Origin: a virus
Lineage: Duplodnaviria; Caudoviricetes
IMG/VR virus record: IMGVR_UViG_3300046318_000439
Location: 32,001-96,000 of that record
Reading direction: 5' to 3' (one strand)
DNA length: 64,000 nucleotides
This document shows, piece after piece, positions 32,001 through 45,626 of the stretch; within the stretch, counting starts at the first letter, position 1; every line of letters begins with the position of its first letter. The position numbers and the translations under genes were made by a program. The notes under the pieces are model-generated. The model was not told where the DNA came from, did not search any database, and was given only the letters and a program-made list of their open reading frames with translations.

Positions 32001-32313
32001 CAATACCGCGCTCTGTTCCTTTTGTGCGATATAAGTCCTGGATATGCTTTATTAATAATCTTTTATTAGTGGATACTTCATATGGAAGATCGCGTAAATA
32101 TTTTTCTTTGAAGTGTATTACGAAATCATCAATTGTCTTGTCGATATCTCGATACTCAAACATGTTACGACTAAGCTGAGTAGCTTGTCCGTTGCTTTCC
32201 ATCCACTCATAGTATGCTTTTACAAAAGCAATAAATTCCTTACCTTCTTCCTTATAAAAAGAAGGAAATTGTGATTCGATAAATGGGGAAACGTGATCTT
32301 CTATATCTCTCAT
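29095..32313 (-). CDS. gp7: Baseplate wedge initiator gp7
   Basis: SPFIESQFPSFYKEEG..FIAFVKAYYEW, YRTKGTERG..LLFRL, YYQEYSYEV...HTAGTKFFG. Confidence 0.85.
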   Translation of the reverse strand: MRDIEDHVSPFIESQFPSFYKEEGKEFIAFVKAYYEWMESNGQATQLSRNMFEYRDIDKTIDDFVIHFKEKYLRDLPYEVSTNKRLLIKHIQDLYRTKGTERGIDLLFRLIYNVGADVYYPGDDLLKPSDGQWFVPEYIEVSPAAKNDSLVGKTAIGTTSGATAFIERIVRKRVQGKFLDVFYISAREGNFVYNERIVDSADPVVEGAPKVIGSLSSLVVLNGGQDFNIGDVLTLKTGSGQQGKALVTGISTETGRVNFKIEDGGFGYTTNAQVIISSTNLTINNPTNANSAVTGFQRFETVSQPLATIAYSTTTNSAAFSAGAIVENYYGNGVVSANAVVIQNTPTNNTSGTMVVVPINGNVGSDATISLSGNSVTAVIDTYTNSTATGNVMFVSNTLIGVYDTTNQFVTYPGNYIVGLTSNTYANVSVRSSGTSARFSVGGLTNEQTVLVFSDLLRANNTGNVAFMNVLLDGSNSNVAANAYGFPKYPAGDINTTLQNILRFSNKTIGEISVLRSINPGEGYNADPKVVVIEPEISALDKHDFTIKLSNLTGLFVPGEIIEMSSNSFGQQLQITGFSGTAANGAATNAPEIGEYVWQSNGTSNTASGFVYESSVAAGSGSIKINNATGTFVNTYALNTLTTNATATISSANTVTLVTTTTGSVKTGNSSVITVKRLNLNDEFLANETIFGKLSGAAATILDVSSDQSTLPVGENAIVSANVQIANTVVSSLEVIDSGFGYVQDETVTMSTEGGLQDVTARVILNDQGQSEGYYQTERGFVDGSSKIHDGEYYQEYSYEVQTRIPLEKYADVLKDVVHTAGTKFFGKVVFDSLASYEDSNLIAPLPRQYNINVADGNGTYIVGESVYQTSANGTYKGHTGVITIANNAPYIEAGTQISTPSFSSNASSATVTTVTSNASHSTLYTTMLEGTIDTGDTIEAILGRKLTINEVQQGNTVTGSFAVGEVVYQSNAMDGAHTANGSVVAANSTLVEIWTVSGTWNTNTNVYGTTSNAYANTAAVTNSTNTYSVVTSINTLHIANVSGQFVHSSIISGANSGATSNASYISISLDT

Positions 32314-35399: not shown

Positions 35400-36643
35400 G
35401 CGTTGAATCCTATTTTATTACAATCAAAAGTAATATTATGTTTAAATTTCTTATCTTCTTGTACAATTAGATGTCGCAACTTTGTTATCATATATTTTCC
35501 AGAGTATCGCTTATCGCCGGATTTCTTTTCTGTTGTGCCAGAAGTATCTGGTAGATCCAGCTGGATCATATCTCCTACTGTAATATAGTTGTCACCATAA
35601 GCCATACAACGTGTTACGTTCTGATTGAATAGCTTAACAAAAGCATGTCTATATCCAATTAGATCAGATACGAAATCGTTTCCTTTGCTAGAGTCTTTAG
35701 GAGTAAACATATAATATGGAGCCCCAGCCTTAACTTCGTTTATAATCTTTTGACTGTTTGGTACCTTAGCTGCTTTATCCCCAGTTTCAAATTTATGAGC
35801 TTGTTTGTCGAGATCAAAATTAGTCTCTCCGAACTCCTTCGATAAAAGGTCAAAAGAGCGAACTGTATTTTTATACAAACCTCCGGACATTTTATCAATT
35901 GTATCAAATTTGGATAAATGCTCAAACCGTTGCAAATTGCGAAACGCAAACGCTTTTCTTTGTTTATCAGATACTGTATCGGGATTGTATGTGAACGCTC
36001 TGGATGCGATTGTCTTAGATCCATCCTCAATTAATTTTTCTAACGTAACGAAGTTTATTCCATATTGATTCTCAAAAAACACAAACACGCCACCAGATGC
36101 TCTTTTAGATATCGCCTTTTGTCTTAAAAAATCAACTGCTGCCAAAGGATTCATTTTAGGAAGCGTGACTGGAATCAATCCTCTTGTTGTTTCAACAACT
36201 ACTGGCTTTTTAGTTTTTACTTCATTGACGAGAATATCTGCTACCATCTCAGCAACAGTATTGTTGTACCCTTTGTCAATTAACTGAACGCTGTTAATAA
36301 AGTGTTCTTCAGAAACACATTTTAACATATATGCCGATCCTTTACCGGTGGCGTTGTTAACTGTGCCATCGATGCTATATGTGCGGAATTTGTACTTAGT
36401 GGGCTTATCGCGACCTGGAGTCACAAACACAATTTCAACATTTTCTTCGCCAATTATAGGAAAATCCTTTACTAAGTTGGCGCTGTCAACCATCATTAAC
36501 TCAGCATATACTGTAGGCTCTTCGATGTCTTCAAATATAGAAAGTGACATCACTTGAGCACGTATATCGACACTAGCACTTTTATTTGTGTTGGTGAGAT
36601 TGATACTAATTATTCGAATGTCGCCTGGCTCATATTGTTTCAT
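35396..36643 (-). CDS. Baseplate hub protein (gp27-like)
   Basis: Position between gp53 and gp5; SIFEDI, PIIGEE, FVFFEN..G.NF, YSGKYMITKLRH. Confidence 0.7.
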   Translation of the reverse strand: MKQYEPGDIRIISINLTNTNKSASVDIRAQVMSLSIFEDIEEPTVYAELMMVDSANLVKDFPIIGEENVEIVFVTPGRDKPTKYKFRTYSIDGTVNNATGKGSAYMLKCVSEEHFINSVQLIDKGYNNTVAEMVADILVNEVKTKKPVVVETTRGLIPVTLPKMNPLAAVDFLRQKAISKRASGGVFVFFENQYGINFVTLEKLIEDGSKTIASRAFTYNPDTVSDKQRKAFAFRNLQRFEHLSKFDTIDKMSGGLYKNTVRSFDLLSKEFGETNFDLDKQAHKFETGDKAAKVPNSQKIINEVKAGAPYYMFTPKDSSKGNDFVSDLIGYRHAFVKLFNQNVTRCMAYGDNYITVGDMIQLDLPDTSGTTEKKSGDKRYSGKYMITKLRHLIVQEDKKFKHNITFDCNKIGFNA

Positions 36644-37500
36644 AGAAGCTCTTCTAACTCTTTTTCAATTTGATCAATGTATCCTTTGTCTATTAATTTA
36701 ATGTGCCGTTTTGATTCATTAAGCTCGTTTTCGTAGTCATAAAAAGAGACGTATGTCCAATAAACTGCTTCATTAGCTGGAATTGATGTGACAATTGTAT
36801 TCACATCAGATACAGTAGCACTAGCTCCACTATTCATACCAATTAGACTGCCAACGGAACCAGCTGTATTAGCAATTGCGCCAACTACATGCTGTATAGT
36901 TAAGATGTTTTCTGCCTTATGTTTAACAATTGCAGATGCTGTAATATTGCCAGAAGTTTTTTGTGTGACTGGCTCTCCCTCTATAAAATTTGCTGTAGAG
37001 GAGACTGTTACTTCTTGTATTTTATTAGTATCTACTGCAAGAATATCTTGTGATCTTTCGTATGCGGCAATTGATCCAGAAGCTCCAATCCTAGGTGCAA
37101 AGTATTTTTTAGCGTAGCTTGGCAAAGCAGCATAACCAGCAGGCGTTAACATAGTATCATCCTCGTGCCAATTCGTACGCCAATATAAAATGCCTTCTTT
37201 AGCAGCTACCAACGACCCATACTTTTTAATAATAACGTTATTAAGTTCCTCTTCCATAAGAGGCCAATCGTACAAGGGGTCTACAATATCATTAGCCATA
37301 TAGATCACCCAACTGTATCGAGGATCATCATAGTAGTTGGCGGCAATAACATCTGCTCGTTCGCCCTCTAATATAGTGTATGGATAAAAGATAGCTCCTG
37401 CCTTTTTAGCAGCATTGCTAAATTTTACTTTAGCTAGTAAATTGACAGCAACGTTGCCATCATAGTATATTACAGGAAATTTTGTGAATAAATTAAACAT
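36640..37500 (-). CDS. gp53: Baseplate wedge component gp53
   Basis: YTILEGERADVIAANYYDDPRYSWVIYMAN.IVDPLYDWPL; YDYENELNESKRHIKLI. Confidence 0.9.
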   Translation of the reverse strand: MFNLFTKFPVIYYDGNVAVNLLAKVKFSNAAKKAGAIFYPYTILEGERADVIAANYYDDPRYSWVIYMANDIVDPLYDWPLMEEELNNVIIKKYGSLVAAKEGILYWRTNWHEDDTMLTPAGYAALPSYAKKYFAPRIGASGSIAAYERSQDILAVDTNKIQEVTVSSTANFIEGEPVTQKTSGNITASAIVKHKAENILTIQHVVGAIANTAGSVGSLIGMNSGASATVSDVNTIVTSIPANEAVYWTYVSFYDYENELNESKRHIKLIDKGYIDQIEKELEELL

Positions 37501-37513
37501 AAATTATTGTGAA

Positions 37514-38752
37514 TTAAGATGCAATTATATCTGCGCTGATGTTACCAGCCTGATCATTGCCTCCAGGACCCGCCCCTGTTCGAGCTGCGGGGGTGTTTTT
37601 CGGGACTGGCGACTTACCTTGAGTTGTTGCTGGTAGCGGTTTATTAGCAGAATTTCGGCCAAGCGGTTGTGTCAAATCGCCCGCCTGCACATCGTTACGA
37701 GTTACTGGCTCAACTTCACCAAACTCTAAACTTATTTCTGCTTCCGTTGTATATTTACCACCTTTGAAGAATGATGGAGTTCCTTGGGGAGCATAATTTA
37801 CGCTCATTGACTTCAAGTAACAATTTTTAAATGAGTACGGCATATCTCTTGTCTGGAATTCAATTGTACATATGTCAGGGAAGTTAAACAACAATCCAGA
37901 CTTTTCTGGCAACATTCTAATCTTTAATTCGCGTATAATAGCTTTAAGTGCAGCTGCCTCTGCTTCGGAGTTTGGCGAACATCTGAATCTAAACGAATGA
38001 CTCCGTAAATCAATTCCTTGGAACTGCAAAGCTTGATATGGATTCAATACAGAGCCAGTTGCGCGATCGATAGCTGCGCCTGCGTTATCAGATATTGATT
38101 TAATTCCACTTCTTGCCAAGTAAGCTAGGTTGCCTGGTGCTCCCGCAAGGTTGCCAAGATTTTTGCCAGCAGCTGCTGCTTTATCTTTTGTCATTGTTCC
38201 ACCCAACATATCCTGAGCAGATTTTAATAATCCACTTTCCTCTAAAAGACCAGCCATGCCTAGTTGTTTTTCTGCATATTGAACTGAGTAGCGCTCACTC
38301 AATTCTGATGGTAGAGGAAGATATATTGTAGCTGTCGGTAGCTCTTTACGAGGAAACACTGGGTTGGTTTGATAAGCACTTTTGAAGGAAAACTTTATAT
38401 AATAATGCCCTAAATCCAAAGGAAATTGCATTTGACCTGGTCCCTTAGTAATTTTTCCGCGAGTACCTTCAGGTCTTATCTCGCGAATCTTTTCAGCGAC
38501 GCCTAGAGTATCTTTAAATTTAGTAACTGTAGAGACAGCACTGCCTAATTGGTTAAATGCTGCAGATGCTGCTCCAGTAATGGAACTTCCAGCGGCGCTC
38601 AACTTGCCAGCAATTCCCCCCAACACTCCTTGAATGGATCCTGCAGCACCGTTAAGAGTGGTTGATCCGACGCCACTTATTGAGTTTTGAACGTTTCCAA
38701 GAGCCTGCTGAGTTTGCTGGGCGATTGAAGAAGGGTTAGTAAAATCAGGCAT
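37514..38752 (-). CDS. gp48: Baseplate tail-tube cap gp48
   Basis: IYLPLPSEL...Y, VLNPYQALQFQGIDLRSHSFRF...PNSEAEA, CYLKSMSVNYAP. Confidence 0.85.
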   Translation of the reverse strand: MPDFTNPSSIAQQTQQALGNVQNSISGVGSTTLNGAAGSIQGVLGGIAGKLSAAGSSITGAASAAFNQLGSAVSTVTKFKDTLGVAEKIREIRPEGTRGKITKGPGQMQFPLDLGHYYIKFSFKSAYQTNPVFPRKELPTATIYLPLPSELSERYSVQYAEKQLGMAGLLEESGLLKSAQDMLGGTMTKDKAAAAGKNLGNLAGAPGNLAYLARSGIKSISDNAGAAIDRATGSVLNPYQALQFQGIDLRSHSFRFRCSPNSEAEAAALKAIIRELKIRMLPEKSGLLFNFPDICTIEFQTRDMPYSFKNCYLKSMSVNYAPQGTPSFFKGGKYTTEAEISLEFGEVEPVTRNDVQAGDLTQPLGRNSANKPLPATTQGKSPVPKNTPAARTGAGPGGNDQAGNISADIIAS

Positions 38753-38763: not shown

Positions 38764-39213
38764 ATGAGTTATAAAGGTTTCTTTAAGCCCAAAAACCCCA
38801 GTCGATATAAAGGCGATCCTACAAACATAATTTACAGAAGTTCGTGGGAGTTTAAGCTTATGACCTATTTAGACGTCCACCCAGACGTAATAGAATGGTC
38901 TAGCGAAGAGTTTTGCATACCTTATAGATCTCCCATTGATGGTAAGATACATCGTTATTTTCCAGATTTCCATGTGAAAAAGAAAAATGCAACTGGTGAA
39001 ACGGAAACAGTGGTCATTGAAGTAAAGCCAAAAAACCAAGTAGTTCCACCAAATGTAGTTAAAACTAAAACAAACAAACCAACAAAACGATATATTAGAG
39101 AAGTTATGACATACGGTGTAAATGAAGCAAAATGGAAAGCGGCCAAAGCGTTTTGCGCTGACCGTAAATGGAAGTTTTTAATAATGACCGAATCTGAATT
39201 AGGAATAAAATAA
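38764..39213 (+). CDS. gp4: Head completion protein gp4 (TnsA-like nuclease fold)
   Basis: YKG.FKPKNP..YKGDPTNIIYRSSWE, HRYFPDF, NEAKW.AA. Confidence 0.95.
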   Translation: MSYKGFFKPKNPSRYKGDPTNIIYRSSWEFKLMTYLDVHPDVIEWSSEEFCIPYRSPIDGKIHRYFPDFHVKKKNATGETETVVIEVKPKNQVVPPNVVKTKTNKPTKRYIREVMTYGVNEAKWKAAKAFCADRKWKFLIMTESELGIK

Positions 39214-39812
39214 TGGCGATTGCAGTTTTCGAGAATATTCTAAAACAGGCTCAAAAAGCTAATGTGCTAACTAACAAGGCTGAGGATGCTACTCAATGGC
39301 TTCGGAATAAGGCCATGACGTTTAGAAACGTCGATCCAAACCGCGTCATTAAACAAGGCATGGATAAATCTGTAATGCAGGTTAAACCTGGCCAGATGTT
39401 CTTGTTTCAATATGATCCTAAGTTAAAAGATAAGCTTCCATACCACGATCGGTTTCCGTTGGTATTTCCTATCAGGCGCAGTGGAGATGGATTCTATGGA
39501 CTGAACATGCATTATCTTCCAATCCCGTTCAGAGCAATATTGATGGATAATCTATATCAATTAATTAATAATTATAAAAACGACGAGACGACAAAACTCC
39601 GTCTAACATACAACCTACTTGCAGGTACTGCTAAATTTAGGTACTACAAACCATGTTTAAAATACTACCTAAATAGCCAGGTACAAAGTAAATTTATATA
39701 CATTGCCCCAAACGAATGGGACCTTGCTCTATTCCTTCCATTACATAGATTCCAGGGTGCAACAGCTGCTGCAGTGTATAAAGATAGCAAGAAAATAATA
39801 ACAGGTAGATAA
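39213..39812 (+). CDS. gp2: DNA end protector gp2
   Basis: F.YDPK.KDKLPY.DRFPLVF, GFYGLNMHYLP, PCLKYYL. Confidence 0.92.
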   Translation: MAIAVFENILKQAQKANVLTNKAEDATQWLRNKAMTFRNVDPNRVIKQGMDKSVMQVKPGQMFLFQYDPKLKDKLPYHDRFPLVFPIRRSGDGFYGLNMHYLPIPFRAILMDNLYQLINNYKNDETTKLRLTYNLLAGTAKFRYYKPCLKYYLNSQVQSKFIYIAPNEWDLALFLPLHRFQGATAAAVYKDSKKIITGR

Positions 39813-39813
39813 T

Positions 39814-40698
39814 ATGGCCAAAGCCGCTGACTTCTTCACAAAAGCTAGAAATGTAGCCGGAACTGCAAATGCACTCCGGGAATTCTTGCCAGATGAAATC
39901 ACAAATGGTATCGATTCCATCTTTGGCGGTAACATTCTACCAGTTGGAGCTCGTAAAGGAATCAGCGGTTTCAGATCCACCATTAATAACTTAAATGGAC
40001 TGCAAAGACCGAATCACTTTTACGTAACAATACCGAACCCTCCTATACTGCAGGGAGATATTGGTCCCATCTTATTGCCGTTTTTAACGGAGTCAGCAAC
40101 TATTCCTGGCGTATCTTTAGCAACATCAGATGTTAGACGTTACGGATATGGTCCAACCGAGAAAAAGCCGTATGCTCCTATATTTGTTGACCAACAGATG
40201 ACCTTTTTAGGAGACGCGTCTGGTGTTGTTCATAAGTTCTTTTATAAGTGGATGAACGGTATTGTAAAATATGATGAGTTCCCTCGAGGTAGACCAGGAT
40301 TCAATGGAGTACGTCCTTTTGAGGTTGAATATAAGCGCCAATACGCCGTCGACATTATAATCACAGCCATTGATGAAGTCGATCGGAAGATAATGGAAGT
40401 AAAGCTGTATGATGCGTTCCCAATCGCTATGGGTGATATAGGGTTGAGTTGGAACCAAAATGACAGCTACGTCGGTATACCAATCACGTTTTCTTACTAT
40501 AAATGGAAACGTACAGATATTAGTATCAATCTTGATGAATTAATTGGAGAAGACATTTCTCCAGTACAAAGATTGTTGAAGGCAGGAACTGCAATCCAGA
40601 CTCTTGCTAAAATTAAAAAGCCCAACAACGTTGCAGATATTCTCAACGTCGTCAACAATAGTAAAGTTGCTGTTGGAAGCTTAGGAGGTTTCTTTTAA
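39814..40698 (+). CDS. gp54: Tail tube initiator gp54 (gp19 fold)
   Basis: RPNHFYVTI, ESATIPG..LAT, KLYDAFPI.MGDI.LSW, ITFSYYKW. Confidence 0.75.
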   Translation: MAKAADFFTKARNVAGTANALREFLPDEITNGIDSIFGGNILPVGARKGISGFRSTINNLNGLQRPNHFYVTIPNPPILQGDIGPILLPFLTESATIPGVSLATSDVRRYGYGPTEKKPYAPIFVDQQMTFLGDASGVVHKFFYKWMNGIVKYDEFPRGRPGFNGVRPFEVEYKRQYAVDIIITAIDEVDRKIMEVKLYDAFPIAMGDIGLSWNQNDSYVGIPITFSYYKWKRTDISINLDELIGEDISPVQRLLKAGTAIQTLAKIKKPNNVADILNVVNNSKVAVGSLGGFF

Positions 40699-40707
40699 GG
40701 AGTTATT

Positions 40708-41418
40708 ATGGCATTACCAAAAATCAGTCACCCAATATTTGAATTGACATTACCATCCACCAAACAAACAATTCGCTACAGACCTTTCTTGGTCAAAGAA
40801 GAAAAGATTCTTCTAACTGCTCAAGCATCTGGCGAACCGCAAGACATTATCTTATCAATTAGACAAGTAATCAATAACTGTATTCTAACAGAAGGAATTG
40901 ATATTGAAGACTTAACAACATTTGATTTAGAGTATTTGTTTATTAAAATTAGAGCTAAATCTGTTAACAATATTATAAGTTTGACATATAGAGATTTAGA
41001 AGATGAAAAGCGTTATGATGTAGAAGTTGATCTAGATCAAATTGAAATGAAAGAAGATCCGACTCACACAAATATAGTGGATGTCGGTAACGGCATTTCT
41101 TTGACAATGCGTTATCCAAAAGCAGACATTGCATCATCATTAAAGGCTGTTGATGGTGAACTAGATGTATTCTTTGAAGTTTTGAGAAACTGCATTGCTA
41201 CAATTAATGACGGTGAGCAAACGCACGTTACGAGCGACTATGGCTCCGAAGAGATGGATGAATTTATTCAATCCCTTGACGTGAATGCATTTAAGAAGAT
41301 TCAAGAGTTTTTTTCAACTATGCCTAAACTGTACTATGAAGTCAAATATACTAATAGCTTAGGTAATGAAAAGGTCATCCCACTGACTACATTAAATGAT
41401 TTTTTTACGTTGGGCTGA
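40708..41418 (+). CDS. gp26: Baseplate hub assembly protein gp26
   Basis: MALPKI.HP.FELTLPST...YRPFLVKEEKILL, FDLEYLF.KIRAKSV, ends LNDFF. Confidence 0.92.
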   Translation: MALPKISHPIFELTLPSTKQTIRYRPFLVKEEKILLTAQASGEPQDIILSIRQVINNCILTEGIDIEDLTTFDLEYLFIKIRAKSVNNIISLTYRDLEDEKRYDVEVDLDQIEMKEDPTHTNIVDVGNGISLTMRYPKADIASSLKAVDGELDVFFEVLRNCIATINDGEQTHVTSDYGSEEMDEFIQSLDVNAFKKIQEFFSTMPKLYYEVKYTNSLGNEKVIPLTTLNDFFTLG

Positions 41419-41594
41419 GTCATAACTCATTAGCAAACTACTATACGCTAATATTCAGTTTGGCTCAGCATCATAAATGGTCAGTGACAGAGATAGAAGA
41501 TATGATACCTTTTGAGCGTGATCTTTATGTGGATATGTTGAAGGATTATTTAGAAAAAGAACAAGAGAGATTAAAATCTAAAGGACATGGCTGA
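41400..41594 (+). CDS. gp51: gp51-like baseplate hub assembly ORF with no ATG at its 5' end, in the -1 frame of gp26
   Basis: Manual translation between TGA 41397-41399 and TGA 41592-41594: FFYVGLSHNSLANYYTLIFSLAQHHKWSVTEIEDMIPFERDLYVDMLKDYLEKEQERLKSKGHG. Confidence 0.8.
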   Translation, partial: FFYVGLSHNSLANYYTLIFSLAQHHKWSVTEIEDMIPFERDLYVDMLKDYLEKEQERLKSKGHG

Positions 41595-42894
41595 TACAAA
41601 GACCACTGCAATGAACGAAGCTAAGGATGCTGCTTTAGACAGCATCGGCTTCGTTTTGTCTGCTACAAAAACTCAATCAGTTCAATTAAAGAAATCGTCA
41701 CTGCTTGCAGCACGTAACGTCGTAGCGGTGCGTAAAAATTTAGTATCTCTCGTAACTACTTTTAAAACATATCAAAATACAATCAAGCAAATACAAGCCG
41801 TCGTTGGTAAAGGCGGAGATGCTAATAGCAAGGTATCTAAAATTAGTGGCATACTTCAATCTGGAGGAGATGCATACAAAGAAAAAGAAGCAGAGCAAGA
41901 AGACAAACCAAAAGCCACCGAATTGGTGAAGGGCATTGGTAAGAATGTAGCTACTGCTGCAGGCTCTGCATTAGCCCTAGCCATTCCATTCTTATTGAGT
42001 CCAGAAATGCGCGAAATGTTGATGAGTTTCTTTAGCGGTTTCTTGGAAGGTTTGGGATTAGGTAAAGATGCCCTGGATAAAGTTAAGCTCGGATTCGGAA
42101 TAGCTGCTGGTATATTGATAGCTTATTTCTCTGCATCAGTTATATCAAGTATAGCAGGGGCATTCATGCAAATGCAAAAACTAGCGCAGGTGTTGGGATT
42201 GGCTGGTGAGGTCGTAAGCGCTGAGAAAACCAAAATAGATACAGAGAAAGATAAAGTCAAGCAAGCAGGCAAGGGAACTAAAGCAGAGTTGGATAGTGCC
42301 AAAAAGGACATGAAGAAGAATAGCAAGGGCAATCTTCTAAAACGACTAGGAGTGCTTAAAAATACACTAGGTCCTAAACTATTGAAGTTGGGCAAAAACT
42401 TTCTTAAAGCACTACCAATAGTTGGCACAGTTTTAGGCATAGGACTCATTTTGTATGATTTGTTTGATATAGGTAAAGATGTTTGGAATTTCCTTAAAGG
42501 GGAAGAAACGACGGACGCTGAAGATAAGCAAAACACAGAGCAAGAAGATGCAGCTCCTGTTTCTGCTACATCTGCTCCAGCGTCAGCTGCTGCCTCTGCC
42601 CCTGCAGCAGCTGAGGCAGAAATAAAAGCACCAACAAGTAATACATCTGCAGCAGAAATGACTTCAGCTAGCTCTGCTCCCGTTGCAGCTGAACCAGCCG
42701 ATACCCCTCGCGCTGAAGGTATGGCCATACAAGAAAGTTCCGTAAAGGTAGAGCAAGCTGATTCAGATCTTGCTCGTACTGCTGGGGGAGTAAATATTAC
42801 TACAATAGACAATTCTACAACAATAATGTCCAGCCCTAAATCAGCTACCGCACCTCCTTCAACGCTAGTATATTCAGTAACGGTAGGAATGTAA
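41587..42894 (+). CDS. Tape-measure-like protein 1 (gp29 position)
   Basis: Follows gp26/gp51; helical Ala/Gly/Lys-rich with hydrophobic segments. Confidence 0.65.
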   Translation: MADTKTTAMNEAKDAALDSIGFVLSATKTQSVQLKKSSLLAARNVVAVRKNLVSLVTTFKTYQNTIKQIQAVVGKGGDANSKVSKISGILQSGGDAYKEKEAEQEDKPKATELVKGIGKNVATAAGSALALAIPFLLSPEMREMLMSFFSGFLEGLGLGKDALDKVKLGFGIAAGILIAYFSASVISSIAGAFMQMQKLAQVLGLAGEVVSAEKTKIDTEKDKVKQAGKGTKAELDSAKKDMKKNSKGNLLKRLGVLKNTLGPKLLKLGKNFLKALPIVGTVLGIGLILYDLFDIGKDVWNFLKGEETTDAEDKQNTEQEDAAPVSATSAPASAAASAPAAAEAEIKAPTSNTSAAEMTSASSAPVAAEPADTPRAEGMAIQESSVKVEQADSDLARTAGGVNITTIDNSTTIMSSPKSATAPPSTLVYSVTVGM

Positions 42895-42897
42895 TAA

Positions 42898-44685
42898 ATG
42901 GCTAACAAAAAGAATCTTCCTAAACTATCCAAACGCACAGCAAATTTGGAAGCATGGCTCGATGAAGTTACAAAGAAACACAACTACGTTGCCAAAGAAG
43001 TGGAGTATGCACATAGCGATCTAGCATTGGTTAGAGGCAGACTTGATAAAATTGAGAAGCATGAGGAAAAGACTGATAAGAGCATCGAGGAGATGCGCGG
43101 TATTATCAATGCAGTTAACAAAAAGGCAGGTTTATTAACTAATGTTGCTGCTAAGAATGCAGGTAAGGTAAAAACTGCTGAGCAAGGTGCAACAGGGAAA
43201 CCCGACACATCCAACACAATAGCTGCATTAACTAGTTCTATGAATATAATTGCTACTTCATTAGGAATAATGAATAGTAGCCTATCGAAAGCTTTAGGTG
43301 TAAAGATGGCTCCTATGGGAGCTCAGAAAGAAGAAGCTCCAGGTCCATCAGGAATCCCAGCTCCTAAAGAAGGAGAAAAAGAACAAGGTATATTTGGTCT
43401 ACTCAAAGGATTGTTCTCAAATCCTGCTGTCGTAGCTGCAATAGCTGGCATTGTATACACCGTATTGCCAAAAGAAACACAAGAACAAATTAAAGGGTTC
43501 TTGGGGGGATTCGCTGATGGTCTCGGAGAGGCTATGGGGAAGAATGAGCAAGAAGGTATGGGAGGTTTCAACACAGCCCTTAAAGCAGCTGGTATTGCAT
43601 TGACTGCATATTTTGGCGCTAAGATGATTAGCGGGGTTGCTGGTGCAATCACAACAACGCTAAAAATTGTCAAGATGATGGGTGGCGGTAAGCTAGGCAG
43701 AGGTCTTGCTGTTGCTGGAGCTGCAGCTGCAGTTGGTGGTGCTGTTGCGATGAGTGGTGGAGACGATGAAGAGGGCGGTGGCGGTGAAGCAGCTGCTGCA
43801 GGAGGAGCAGTTCCAAGTGGCGGAGATGCTGGAGGCGCTGAATCTAAACCATCTCCCGCTGGCACGAGCTTGCCTAAACCTAAAGATACAACAGCTCCTA
43901 AGGCACCCCCTGGATCATCAAGTACAGGTAGTAACGTACCAGACAATATCGATTTAAAGAGTGTAGTCAATGCTGGTTCTGGCGTTGACTTAGAAGGTCT
44001 TGACCCATCAGCCAAAAAACGTCTTGCAGGTATGGCATATGAGTACCAGCAGAAGACTGGCAAGAAACTACAAGTTAACTCTGCTTATAGAGACCCAGAA
44101 AAGCAAGCACAGCTGTATGCTAAGATAGGACCTCCCAATGCTGCCCCTCCTGGAAAGAGCTGGCACGAAAAGGGATTGGCTTTTGATATTAACTCAGCAG
44201 ATGCTAATAAAGCAGATGAGCTTGGACTCATGGCTAAGTATGGATTCAAGCGACCTGTGGCTAAAGAGCCATGGCACGTAGAATTATCTGAGACAAGAGG
44301 CGGCCCAGCATATGCTGATAATCCAGCTGCGCCTGGGGCTGCTGTTGCTGTTGCAGATAAGAGTGGTAAACCATCAATACCCGCATCAGGTAAAACCACT
44401 GCAGCAGGTGAGGTAGCATCAGCCCCAGGTGCTGGTAGCACCCCAGCCGATAGCGCTACATTAGCACAAGATAATAATAATACCGGACAACAAGTCAATA
44501 GCTTATCGCAAAATGTCAAGGATGCTGCTAGGCCTGGATCTTCCACTTCTATGGCAAGCGTTGACAACTCACAAAAAGGTGGGACAGGAAGTCAAGAAGC
44601 AGCTCCTCAACAACCTATCCCATCACCTATTGCTTCAAGAGGCTCACTAGGAGCCTTCACAAAACATAGTACAGCTTACGCTTAA
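42898..44685 (+). CDS. Tape-measure-like protein 2 with M15 (VanY-like) D-Ala-D-Ala peptidase domain
   Basis: VNSAYRDPEKQAQLY, AAPPGKSWHEKGLAFDI (SxHxxGxAxD), EPWHVE. Confidence 0.8.
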   Translation: MANKKNLPKLSKRTANLEAWLDEVTKKHNYVAKEVEYAHSDLALVRGRLDKIEKHEEKTDKSIEEMRGIINAVNKKAGLLTNVAAKNAGKVKTAEQGATGKPDTSNTIAALTSSMNIIATSLGIMNSSLSKALGVKMAPMGAQKEEAPGPSGIPAPKEGEKEQGIFGLLKGLFSNPAVVAAIAGIVYTVLPKETQEQIKGFLGGFADGLGEAMGKNEQEGMGGFNTALKAAGIALTAYFGAKMISGVAGAITTTLKIVKMMGGGKLGRGLAVAGAAAAVGGAVAMSGGDDEEGGGGEAAAAGGAVPSGGDAGGAESKPSPAGTSLPKPKDTTAPKAPPGSSSTGSNVPDNIDLKSVVNAGSGVDLEGLDPSAKKRLAGMAYEYQQKTGKKLQVNSAYRDPEKQAQLYAKIGPPNAAPPGKSWHEKGLAFDINSADANKADELGLMAKYGFKRPVAKEPWHVELSETRGGPAYADNPAAPGAAVAVADKSGKPSIPASGKTTAAGEVASAPGAGSTPADSATLAQDNNNTGQQVNSLSQNVKDAARPGSSTSMASVDNSQKGGTGSQEAAPQQPIPSPIASRGSLGAFTKHSTAYA

Positions 44686-45626
44686 TCTTCTTCAGCTAAA
44701 CGCTTAAAGAAGTCCATGTTTTCATCATCATCATCAAAAGCAGGTTCTAATACTTTAGCAGGAGCTGCTTTAGCAGCTGCTGTTCGTTGAACCGGAGCTT
44801 GCGTTGCTGGCTCTTGATCATCCCACGGCGCTGTCTTTGACTCTGCTGCTGTTGTACGAGCAGCTGCTGGGCTACCATCTAATCCCAAAGCCTTATTTAA
44901 ACGAGCCTTCAATTCATCATATGATTTGAATTCTTTAGGATCAACAAACGCTGCTAATGAGTGTTCTTGTTTCCAGATGTTTTCCAACTCATCATCATCG
45001 TCCATTAGTGGAGCCTTAGCTTCGAACTCAGACTTATCGTAGTTGCGGTATCCCTCAACTTTACGAATCTTTAACTTAAAGTTAGCACCATCCCAGAAAT
45101 CAAATGGGTTGATCTTTGTCTCATCTTCAAACTCTGGATTCATAGCCAACTCAATCTTGTCCCAGATCTTCTTACCATATTTGAAAAGCATTACCTTGCC
45201 TTCATTTTCTGGATGAGCAGGATCTTTAACAACATAGATGTTAGAGATGAAAGATAGACGACGTTTATACTTGCGTACTAATTCTTTATTAGCTTCAATA
45301 CCAGAGTTCCACAACTGACTGTTGTATTCTGATACTGGATCTTTTTGACCTAGTGTAGTCAATGACTTATTCATATACCAACCGCCTGGACCTTGGAATC
45401 CATGATCCCAGATACGAACGTATGGTGTACCTTCGTCCCCATCAGCACCTGGTGTTGGCAAGAAGCGAATAATTGCATAGCCGTTACCTGCTTTATCTAC
45501 TTCTGGTTTCCAGAAGCGATTGTCATCTTGTGAACCTTGTGCGGGGGTGTTTAGTTTTTGAACTTCGTTGATTAGCTTATCAAATTGTGACTTGCTGTTT
45601 TTCTTGAGTGAGGCAAATGAGCTCAT
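44682..45626 (-). CDS. gp32: Single-stranded DNA-binding protein gp32
   Basis: DNRFWKPEVDKAGNGYAIIRFLP, ENEGKVMLFKYGKKI, FWDGANFKLKIRKVEGYRNYDKSEF, acidic tail. Confidence 0.97.
   Translation of the reverse strand: MSSFASLKKNSKSQFDKLINEVQKLNTPAQGSQDDNRFWKPEVDKAGNGYAIIRFLPTPGADGDEGTPYVRIWDHGFQGPGGWYMNKSLTTLGQKDPVSEYNSQLWNSGIEANKELVRKYKRRLSFISNIYVVKDPAHPENEGKVMLFKYGKKIWDKIELAMNPEFEDETKINPFDFWDGANFKLKIRKVEGYRNYDKSEFEAKAPLMDDDDELENIWKQEHSLAAFVDPKEFKSYDELKARLNKALGLDGSPAAARTTAAESKTAPWDDQEPATQAPVQRTAAAKAAPAKVLEPAFDDDDENMDFFKRLAEED

Follow-up and report, generated by a model that had tools for sequence, protein, structure and literature searches.

How does a phage with a single gp26-like gene supply the two tail assembly chaperones that T4 encodes in separate genes? 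The question arises from a 64,000-nucleotide stretch of viral DNA, here called the window (Duplodnaviria; Caudoviricetes; positions 32,001 to 96,000 of IMG/VR record IMGVR_UViG_3300046318_000439), in which a gp26-like open reading frame (ORF) is followed by a gp51-like tail in the -1 frame. The genome to which the window belongs comes from an uncultured virus and is complete, at 202,272 bp with terminal repeats; the sequencing runs that contain this stretch are freshwater metagenomes. From the features described below, we consider it probable that a programmed -1 ribosomal frameshift of the lambda G/GT type joins gp26 to gp51, and very probable that the fused long form is made by some recoding route. 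T4 gp26 and gp51 act as chaperones in hub assembly, and the phage particle does not contain gp51 (PMC3004832). According to the PRFect paper (PMC10885494), which cites Vladimirov, Gautam and Davidson (Virology 2022;566:9-15), the two proteins are the tail assembly chaperones of T4-like phages in their short and long forms. The initial annotation of the window, made from the sequence alone, rightly stated that the two T4 proteins are treated as separate genes; their identity as a chaperone pair had already been published in 2022, as far as the citation in PMC10885494 conveys it. Full-text literature searches, which did not cover the text of Vladimirov 2022, returned no description of a slip site in gp26/gp51.

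The slip site and the -1 frame

The gp26-like ORF ends, in its own frame, with the codons GAT TTT TTT ACG TTG GGC TGA (41398-41418), which contain the heptamer T_TTT_TTT in the X_XXY_YYZ register. The initial annotation had reported this heptamer at 41400-41406 and had described a -1 frame that opens right after the TGA at 41397-41399 and encodes the gp51-like sequence; both descriptions hold. The frame is open from 41400 to a stop at 41592-41594, and its translation begins FFYVGLSHNSLANYY... / FFYVGLSHNSLANYYTLIFSLAQHHKWSVTEIEDMIPFERDLYVDML.... The product matches phrog_634, 'baseplate hub assembly catalyst' (E 1.2e-24), in an alignment that starts at residue 2, which is 19 codons before the first ATG, GTG or TTG of the frame, a TTG at 41460 (codon 21). 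Counted from the first Phe, the first ATG is codon 35, which bears out the earlier remark that no ATG occurs until the middle of the frame.

The zero-frame product, of 236 amino acids (aa), matches PF12322 over residues 9-233 (positions 2-218 of the 219 in the profile), and conceptual fusion of its residues 1-233 to the -1 extension gives a protein of 295 aa. Pfam scans of the two halves of the gp26-like protein returned PF12322 only, and an NCBIfam scan gave no match for either the gp26-like or the gp51-like product. The genome contains one PF12322 gene and one gp51 tail, so that without recoding it would lack the long form.

We propose that most ribosomes would stop at the TGA at 41416-41418 and release the 236-aa short chaperone, while a minority would slip back one base with two tRNA-Phe on UUU UUU (41401-41406) of the U_UUU_UUU heptamer. 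The slipped ribosomes would then read the -1 frame to 41592-41594 and yield the 295-aa long form, in which residues 1-233 are followed by YVGLSHNS.... A hairpin whose core helix lies 7 nucleotides (nt) past the heptamer probably pauses the ribosome and would thereby raise the slip rate. T4 gp26 would be the counterpart of the short product and T4 gp51 that of the long one. If they behave like lambda gpG/gpGT, both chaperones may coat a tape-measure-like protein, recruit hub or tube subunits and leave the finished tail; on the same analogy, binding to the tape-measure-like protein would fall to the part common to both forms, and recruitment of the tube or hub subunits to the tail part. We infer the occurrence of the slip, its efficiency and the binding partners of the chaperones.

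Conservation of the heptamer, its controls and a downstream helix

The comparison covered 80 viral contigs with gp26 relatives (39-69% identity), three cyanophage isolates and eight distant isolates (Melnitz, Cr30, phiM7, RSP15, Moby, PX29, KVP40 and Va3). Counts over 87 loci refer to those with both the gp26 part and the gp51 tail, with a gp26 identity of 26-69%; among them are freshwater and marine T4-like phages as well as KVP40, PX29, Moby, RSP15, Cr30, phiM7 and Melnitz. An in-register T_TTT_TTY is present in every one of the 87, as T_TTT_TTT in 51 and as T_TTT_TTC in 36. Relative to gp26, the gp51-like tail occupies the -1 frame in all 87, and this frame is open from the heptamer onwards; immediately 5' of the heptamer it is closed by a stop codon in 21 of 79 loci. 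The conserved start of the tail reads FF(Y/R/L/Q)(V/I/L)(G/A)(L/M)(S/A)H..L..YY.

This distribution bears on the possibility that faulty sequencing or assembly, or decay of the gene, accounts for the frame break, and that the true gene is a single in-frame gp51-like ORF. Homopolymer runs are indeed error-prone in some sequencing chemistries. However, contigs from three independent freshwater DNA runs, belonging to different studies, span the junction and are identical to the window over the T7 run with no indels, indicating that the frame break is not an assembly error. The same break recurs in 87 of 87 loci, isolate genomes included, and the zero-frame tail past the heptamer is short and ends in a stop codon in every locus. 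An error or a decaying gene is thus scarcely credible.

The choice of codons carries information beyond the encoded Phe-Phe. All 87 loci use TTT as the first Phe codon, whereas the share of TTT in the gene bodies is 64%. The codon before Phe-Phe is GAT, AGT, TCT, AAT or GCT and ends in T in all 87 loci, across Asp, Ser, Asn and Ala, for which T-ending codons have a share of 35-75%. As a natural control, we used nine Straboviridae lineages with a stand-alone long gp51 (T4, CC31, HX01, Roth19, VR5, AB-Navy1, G2248, PspYZU05 and AS-gz). These were drawn from the phage collection; a T4 gp26 query of the viral contigs yielded seven loci only, six of them 97-100% identical to T4 and one 58%. Most of the nine control gp26 proteins still end in GLKEFF, with codons such as GAG TTC TTT or GAA TTC TTC, and an in-register T_TTT_TTY is found in none of the nine. 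The absence of the heptamer from all nine lineages despite Phe-Phe indicates that the slippery form tracks the -1 tail and not the protein motif. The initial annotation had suggested conservation across T4-like gp26 ends as a check on its reading, and the answer is a heptamer at every sampled locus with a -1 tail and in none of the sampled lineages with a stand-alone gp51. The heptamer is conserved beyond what the protein sequence requires, and its recurrence together with the -1 tail at all 87 loci exceeds chance.

In Pseudomonas phage PspYZU05 (L107), one of the lineages with a stand-alone gp51, gp26 ends GAA TTT TTT AAA; this A_TTT_TTT is non-canonical and is the sole T6 run among the nine controls.

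The stand-alone gp51 proteins also allow the predicted fusion to be compared with a long form that is encoded in one frame. T4 gp51 (249 aa) matches PF12322 over residues 1-201 (E 3.9e-52) and phrog_634 over residues 147-246 (E 1.2e-23), and T4 gp26 (208 aa) and T4 gp51 align with each other directly (E 2e-6). A profile of 293 positions, derived from 79 conceptual -1 fusions and having the Phe-Phe of the junction at about 231-232, was compared with nine long gp51 proteins; seven of them matched as a single collinear domain. Profile positions 23-283 align with residues 15-249 of VR5 gp51 (E 2.8e-19), and positions 144-280 with residues 116-246 of T4 gp51 (E 6.6e-15), in each case as a single stretch over the junction. 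Judged by sequence, T4 gp51 is the natural in-frame counterpart of the predicted 295-aa fusion, consisting of a gp26-like domain and the tail.

The likeness to T4 extends to details. The proteins belong to the same family (PF12322/phrog_150), the 236-aa product matches T4 gp26 down to the C-terminal Phe-Phe, and the tail in the window carries the motifs of a gp51 tail (...NYY...HH...MIPxER...), of which ...NY...MIPxER is also given for T4 gp51. Unlike the window, with its one gene and start-less -1 tail, T4 and the eight other sampled Straboviridae have two genes, and in T4 genes 26 and 51 lie on opposite strands. T4 gp26 and gp51 furthermore carry CxxC-type motifs (CPECGK, CPKCKK), whereas none was seen in the window protein. 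The T4 record (L084, 3803-4090) also lists gene 26', an internal in-frame product comprising the C-terminal 95 aa of gp26; counting 26', T4 may make three related chaperone forms.

Downstream of the heptamer, a 9-bp helix is conserved in the clade of the window (44 sequences), in which 91% of cells are paired. Five of the nine pairs have changed on both sides, for example from C-G to U-A, from G-C to A-U and from C-G to A-U. Doubly changed cells number 14, against 3.9 +/- 1.7 in shuffles (0 of 500 as high), a covariation to be read with the caution that both arms are coding. Sliding the helix partner by 1-3 columns leaves a pairing of only 19-35%. The full hairpin, 41411-41473, has a minimum free energy of -21.1 kcal/mol (z -4.94), and none of 200 shuffles is as stable. 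The distance of 7 nt between the heptamer and the core helix is the classical spacing from heptamer to stimulator in -1 frameshifting. These features suggest that the helix formed by 41414-41422 and 41461-41469 is a probable frameshift stimulator.

The same long protein would result from transcriptional slippage, in which RNA polymerase adds an extra U on the T7 run and a fraction of the mRNAs carries the fusion, and UUUUUUU runs are possible slippage sites (PMC4066793). However, what is conserved is the codon register and the T before the Phe codons, not the length of the run, and a covarying helix 7 nt downstream fits ribosomal pausing. In addition, 36 of the 87 loci have only six T's followed by C, and six T's are generally too short for efficient polymerase slippage. 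We therefore regard slippage by the polymerase as very unlikely.

We also considered an upstream Shine-Dalgarno-like (SD-like) 4-mer as a stimulator. It occurs in 43 of 87 loci only, is absent from the window and may merely reflect a LEGL protein motif, and was set aside. In two cyanophage-like loci (L050, 3205-3284; L073, 1992-2071), the ATG at the tail start lies inside a possible 9-bp helix of GATGTTGCA with TGCAGCATC. This helix is three columns off that of the window and would mask the ATG; it is not conserved over the T_TTT_TTC group.

The fold of the short form was examined as well. An AlphaFold2 model of the 236-aa product, built on a 62-sequence alignment, has a mean predicted local distance difference test score of 87 and a predicted template modelling score of 0.80. 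A Foldseek search of this model against the PDB gave nothing below E 0.4, and PDB sequence searches with the gp26-like protein and its 62-sequence profile gave no match. Exhaustive structural alignment of model residues 1-96 with 48,161 chains ranked 3fgx (Z 7.8), 2ob9 (Z 7.6, 85 residues aligned) and 3klu (Z 7.2) ahead of the next chain at 4.8, although Z 7-8 (below 8) is a range in which common arrangements score too. The entry 2ob9 is the tail assembly chaperone of HK97, and 3klu is YqbN of B. subtilis. Searches of BFVD and the AlphaFold DB indicate that the whole-protein fold is widespread among myoviruses. The three top chains agree with one another, and the N-terminal domain of the model may have a fold like that of a tail assembly chaperone (TAC).

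Independent initiation and other points against a frameshift

The gp51-like frame could instead be a separate small gene that is initiated on its own and yields no fusion. Its start would be CTG 41415, which shares bases with the stop (CTGA), or TTG 41460, possibly used by reinitiation once gp26 translation has terminated. GenBank annotates a small gp51 apart from gp26 in cyanophages, KVP40, phiM7 and others. An ATG occurs at codon 5 or 6 in about 13 of 79 loci and a GTG at codon 3 in 8 of 79, and stop-start overlaps of the form TGATG or TAATG are found in Cr30, RSP15, Moby and KVP40.

On the other side stand the residues that such a gene would leave untranslated. Residues 2-20 of the tail in the window are conserved and matched by the profile, yet no ATG, GTG or TTG precedes codon 21, and most other loci have no usable start upstream of the conserved tail residues. 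Three relatives (L008, L029 and L034) reach their first ATG, GTG or TTG only at 0-based codon 45, in a conserved frame of 61-63 codons. The initial annotation had itself named gp51 initiation at CTG 41415 as the scenario that could overturn its reading; this scenario is weakened by six relatives that have CTA or TTA at the homologous position. CTG 41415 lies, together with the zero-frame stop, within the 5' arm of the helix, and TTG 41460 is likewise inside the predicted hairpin. Nor would a separate gene explain why the codon before Phe-Phe ends in T, why TTT is invariant over the 87 loci or why the heptamer is missing where gp51 stands alone; the tail of T4 gp51 functions as part of a protein with a gp26-like domain. 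The starts annotated in GenBank for the small gene are non-homologous between records, and some drop conserved residues. Taken together, these points make a separately initiated gp51 very unlikely.

The annotated starts illustrate this variety. The small gp51 begins at an internal Met in the Melnitz record (L086, 1950-2093), losing about 20 conserved residues, at MDLASYY in the phiM7 record (L088, 1914-2075), at a TTG in the PX29 record (L091, 1914-2087) and at an ATG overlapping the stop in the KVP40 record (L092, 2322-2489). None of these four records annotates a frameshift.

Besides the range of the structural scores, several observations weigh against a programmed frameshift. About a quarter of the relatives have an ATG or GTG near the tail start, often overlapping or adjoining the gp26 stop (TGATG, TAATG); such an overlap of stop and start is the usual layout of translationally coupled genes and likewise yields a -1 frame. 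Phe-Phe is kept at the protein level even in T4 gp26, and coding alone explains part of the T-run. The codon-choice probability of 10^-28 treats 79 distinct sequences as independent and, as the loci are related, overstates their independence, although the pattern nonetheless spans very distant lineages. Heptamers of the type H_HH.U_UU.Y, including U_UU.U_UU.Y, belong to the efficient class in E. coli (Sharma et al., PMC4066793), but this class rests on E. coli data and may not hold for the host of the phage and its tRNA-Phe. Lastly, no RNA structure common to all clades was found (RNAalifold gave no consensus for 54 sequences), and the helix reported above is therefore specific to the clade of the window; a fixed-column scan for 7-bp helices in 28 sequences of the T_TTT_TTC type found none above 67% pairing.

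Nevertheless, a frameshift pair of gp26 and gp26-51, as the initial annotation proposed, is supported by the conservation of the heptamer and its class, which is efficient in E. coli, the -1 tail, the conserved residues that lack a start, the equivalence with T4 gp51, the control lineages and the probable resemblance to a TAC fold.

The tail module and comparison with known systems

The chaperone locus belongs to a T4-type tail module (Table 1). The initial annotation had placed it between a tube-fold gene and tape-measure genes. The upstream gene is tube-like by its PF23849 and phrog_45 matches, whereas the tape measure is proposed by position only: T4 gp29 showed no similarity to either of the two downstream ORFs in BLASTP, neither ORF matches a tape-measure family, and a phrog_1283 homologue is absent from the whole genome. 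The ORFs downstream of the gp26/gp51 locus are long, low in complexity and peptidase-bearing, and the first starts at ATG 41587, sharing 8 nt with the end of the gp51 frame. The tape measure of the phage may be encoded by one or both of these long, unrelated ORFs (41587-44685). Megablast of 39800-44700 against the phage collection gave no match. The gp4-like head-closure protein (38764-39213, plus strand) additionally matches a TnsA-like endonuclease N-terminal domain (PF08722, E 6.1e-22).

Table 1. Features of the gp26/gp51 locus and its surroundings, in window coordinates
Feature	Position	Strand	Evidence or remark
Slippery heptamer T_TTT_TTT, X_XXY_YYZ register (GA-T TTT TTT)	41400-41406	+	Sequence
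TGA closing the -1 frame directly 5' of the heptamer	41397-41399	+	Sequence; precludes an upstream start in the -1 frame
Zero-frame stop TGA of the short form	41416-41418	+	3 codons past the heptamer, within the helix 5' arm
-1 frame extension, gp51-like tail, 62 codons plus stop 41592-41594	41406-41594	+	phrog_634
Helix 5' arm GCTGAGTCA	41414-41422	+	Starts 7 nt past the heptamer; covariation in 44 clade members
Helix 3' arm TGGCTCAGC	41461-41469	+	Pairs with 41414-41422
gp26-like gene, 236-aa zero-frame product, putative short chaperone form (TAC-N equivalent)	40708-41418	+	PF12322 T4_baseplate E 1.3e-55; phrog_150 E 4e-63
gp53-like gene	36640-37500	minus	T4-type tail module
gp48-like gene	37514-38752	minus	T4-type tail module
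gp4-like gene (head closure)	38764-39213	+	phrog_218, E 5.9e-58
gp2-like gene	39213-39812		T4-type tail module
Tail-tube-fold gene (gp54/gp19-like), directly 5' of the chaperone gene	39814-40698	+	PF23849 Phage_TTP_2 E 1.6e-08; phrog_45 'tail tube' E 1.5e-33
First downstream ORF, 435 aa, tape-measure candidate (position only)	41587-42894	+	Weak PHROG matches only
Second downstream ORF, 595 aa, tape-measure-like candidate (position only)	42898-44685	+	VanY/M15 peptidase domain PF02557, E 2.4e-08
gp32-like gene		opposite	After the two long downstream ORFs in the tail module

Frameshifted tail assembly chaperones are among the most conserved viral recoding events, and T4 has long been cited as the exception, G-T frameshifting being described in a review as conserved in long-tailed phages 'except T4' (PMC5009743). 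The present locus and its 86 relatives would bring the T4 lineage under the G/GT rule; T4 itself would be a case in which the two forms have been divided between separate genes, 26 and 51. In the inspected cyanophage, KVP40-type and other records, the small gp51 genes have variable starts or are listed as hypothetical proteins; they would be better annotated as a -1 extension of gp26. The frameshift principle and the chaperone identity of gp26/gp51 were already known, and the gain lies in annotation and supporting detail and not in concept. This analysis contributes a codon-level control, drawn from lineages in which gp51 stands alone, a covarying hairpin specific to the clade of the window, and support for the T7 run from independent metagenomes. 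That clade combines a tail lacking a start with a U7 heptamer and, at textbook spacing, the covarying hairpin, and would offer a clean natural test bed.

A broader reading, which we put forward tentatively and with more doubt than confidence, is that the T_TTT_TTY -1 frameshift is the ancestral and near-universal route to the chaperone pair in the T4 superfamily (cyanophages, freshwater and marine jumbo relatives, KVP40-like, Aeromonas, Stenotrophomonas and Ralstonia phages), and that the two-gene state of T4 is a derived 'resolved frameshift' in part of the Straboviridae. If so, the clade of the window would have evolved a dedicated stimulatory hairpin and lost the start codon of the tail, making the slip obligatory. 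If, in addition, the slip site is absent from the 2022 paper, the inspected gp51 annotations would be wrong and the T4 'exception' to G/GT would need revising.

Among known systems, the -1 signals of bacterial insertion sequence (IS) elements and dnaX resemble the present one in combining a heptamer of the H_HH.U_UU.Y class with a downstream structure (PMC4066793); U_UU.U_UU.C serves IS elements, with a downstream structure as stimulator (PMC4066793). They differ from it in that their proteins and purpose are unrelated, and in that the window is without an upstream SD-like stimulator. HK97 may provide a structural parallel, its chaperone 2ob9 being among the top-ranked chains for the N-terminal domain of the modelled short form. 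A conserved -1 frameshift of tail assembly chaperone genes was reportedly described by Xu, Hendrix and Duda (Mol Cell 2004). Compared with lambda G/GT, the window proteins have no sequence similarity, the heptamer is T_TTT_TTY and not G_GGA_AAG, and the short form, at 236 aa, is larger, with an extra C-terminal domain. Like lambda gpG/gpGT, however, the locus combines a short ORF, a heptamer a few codons before the stop and a start-less -1 extension, and it lies after the tube-like gene and before long ORFs that are tape-measure candidates by position.

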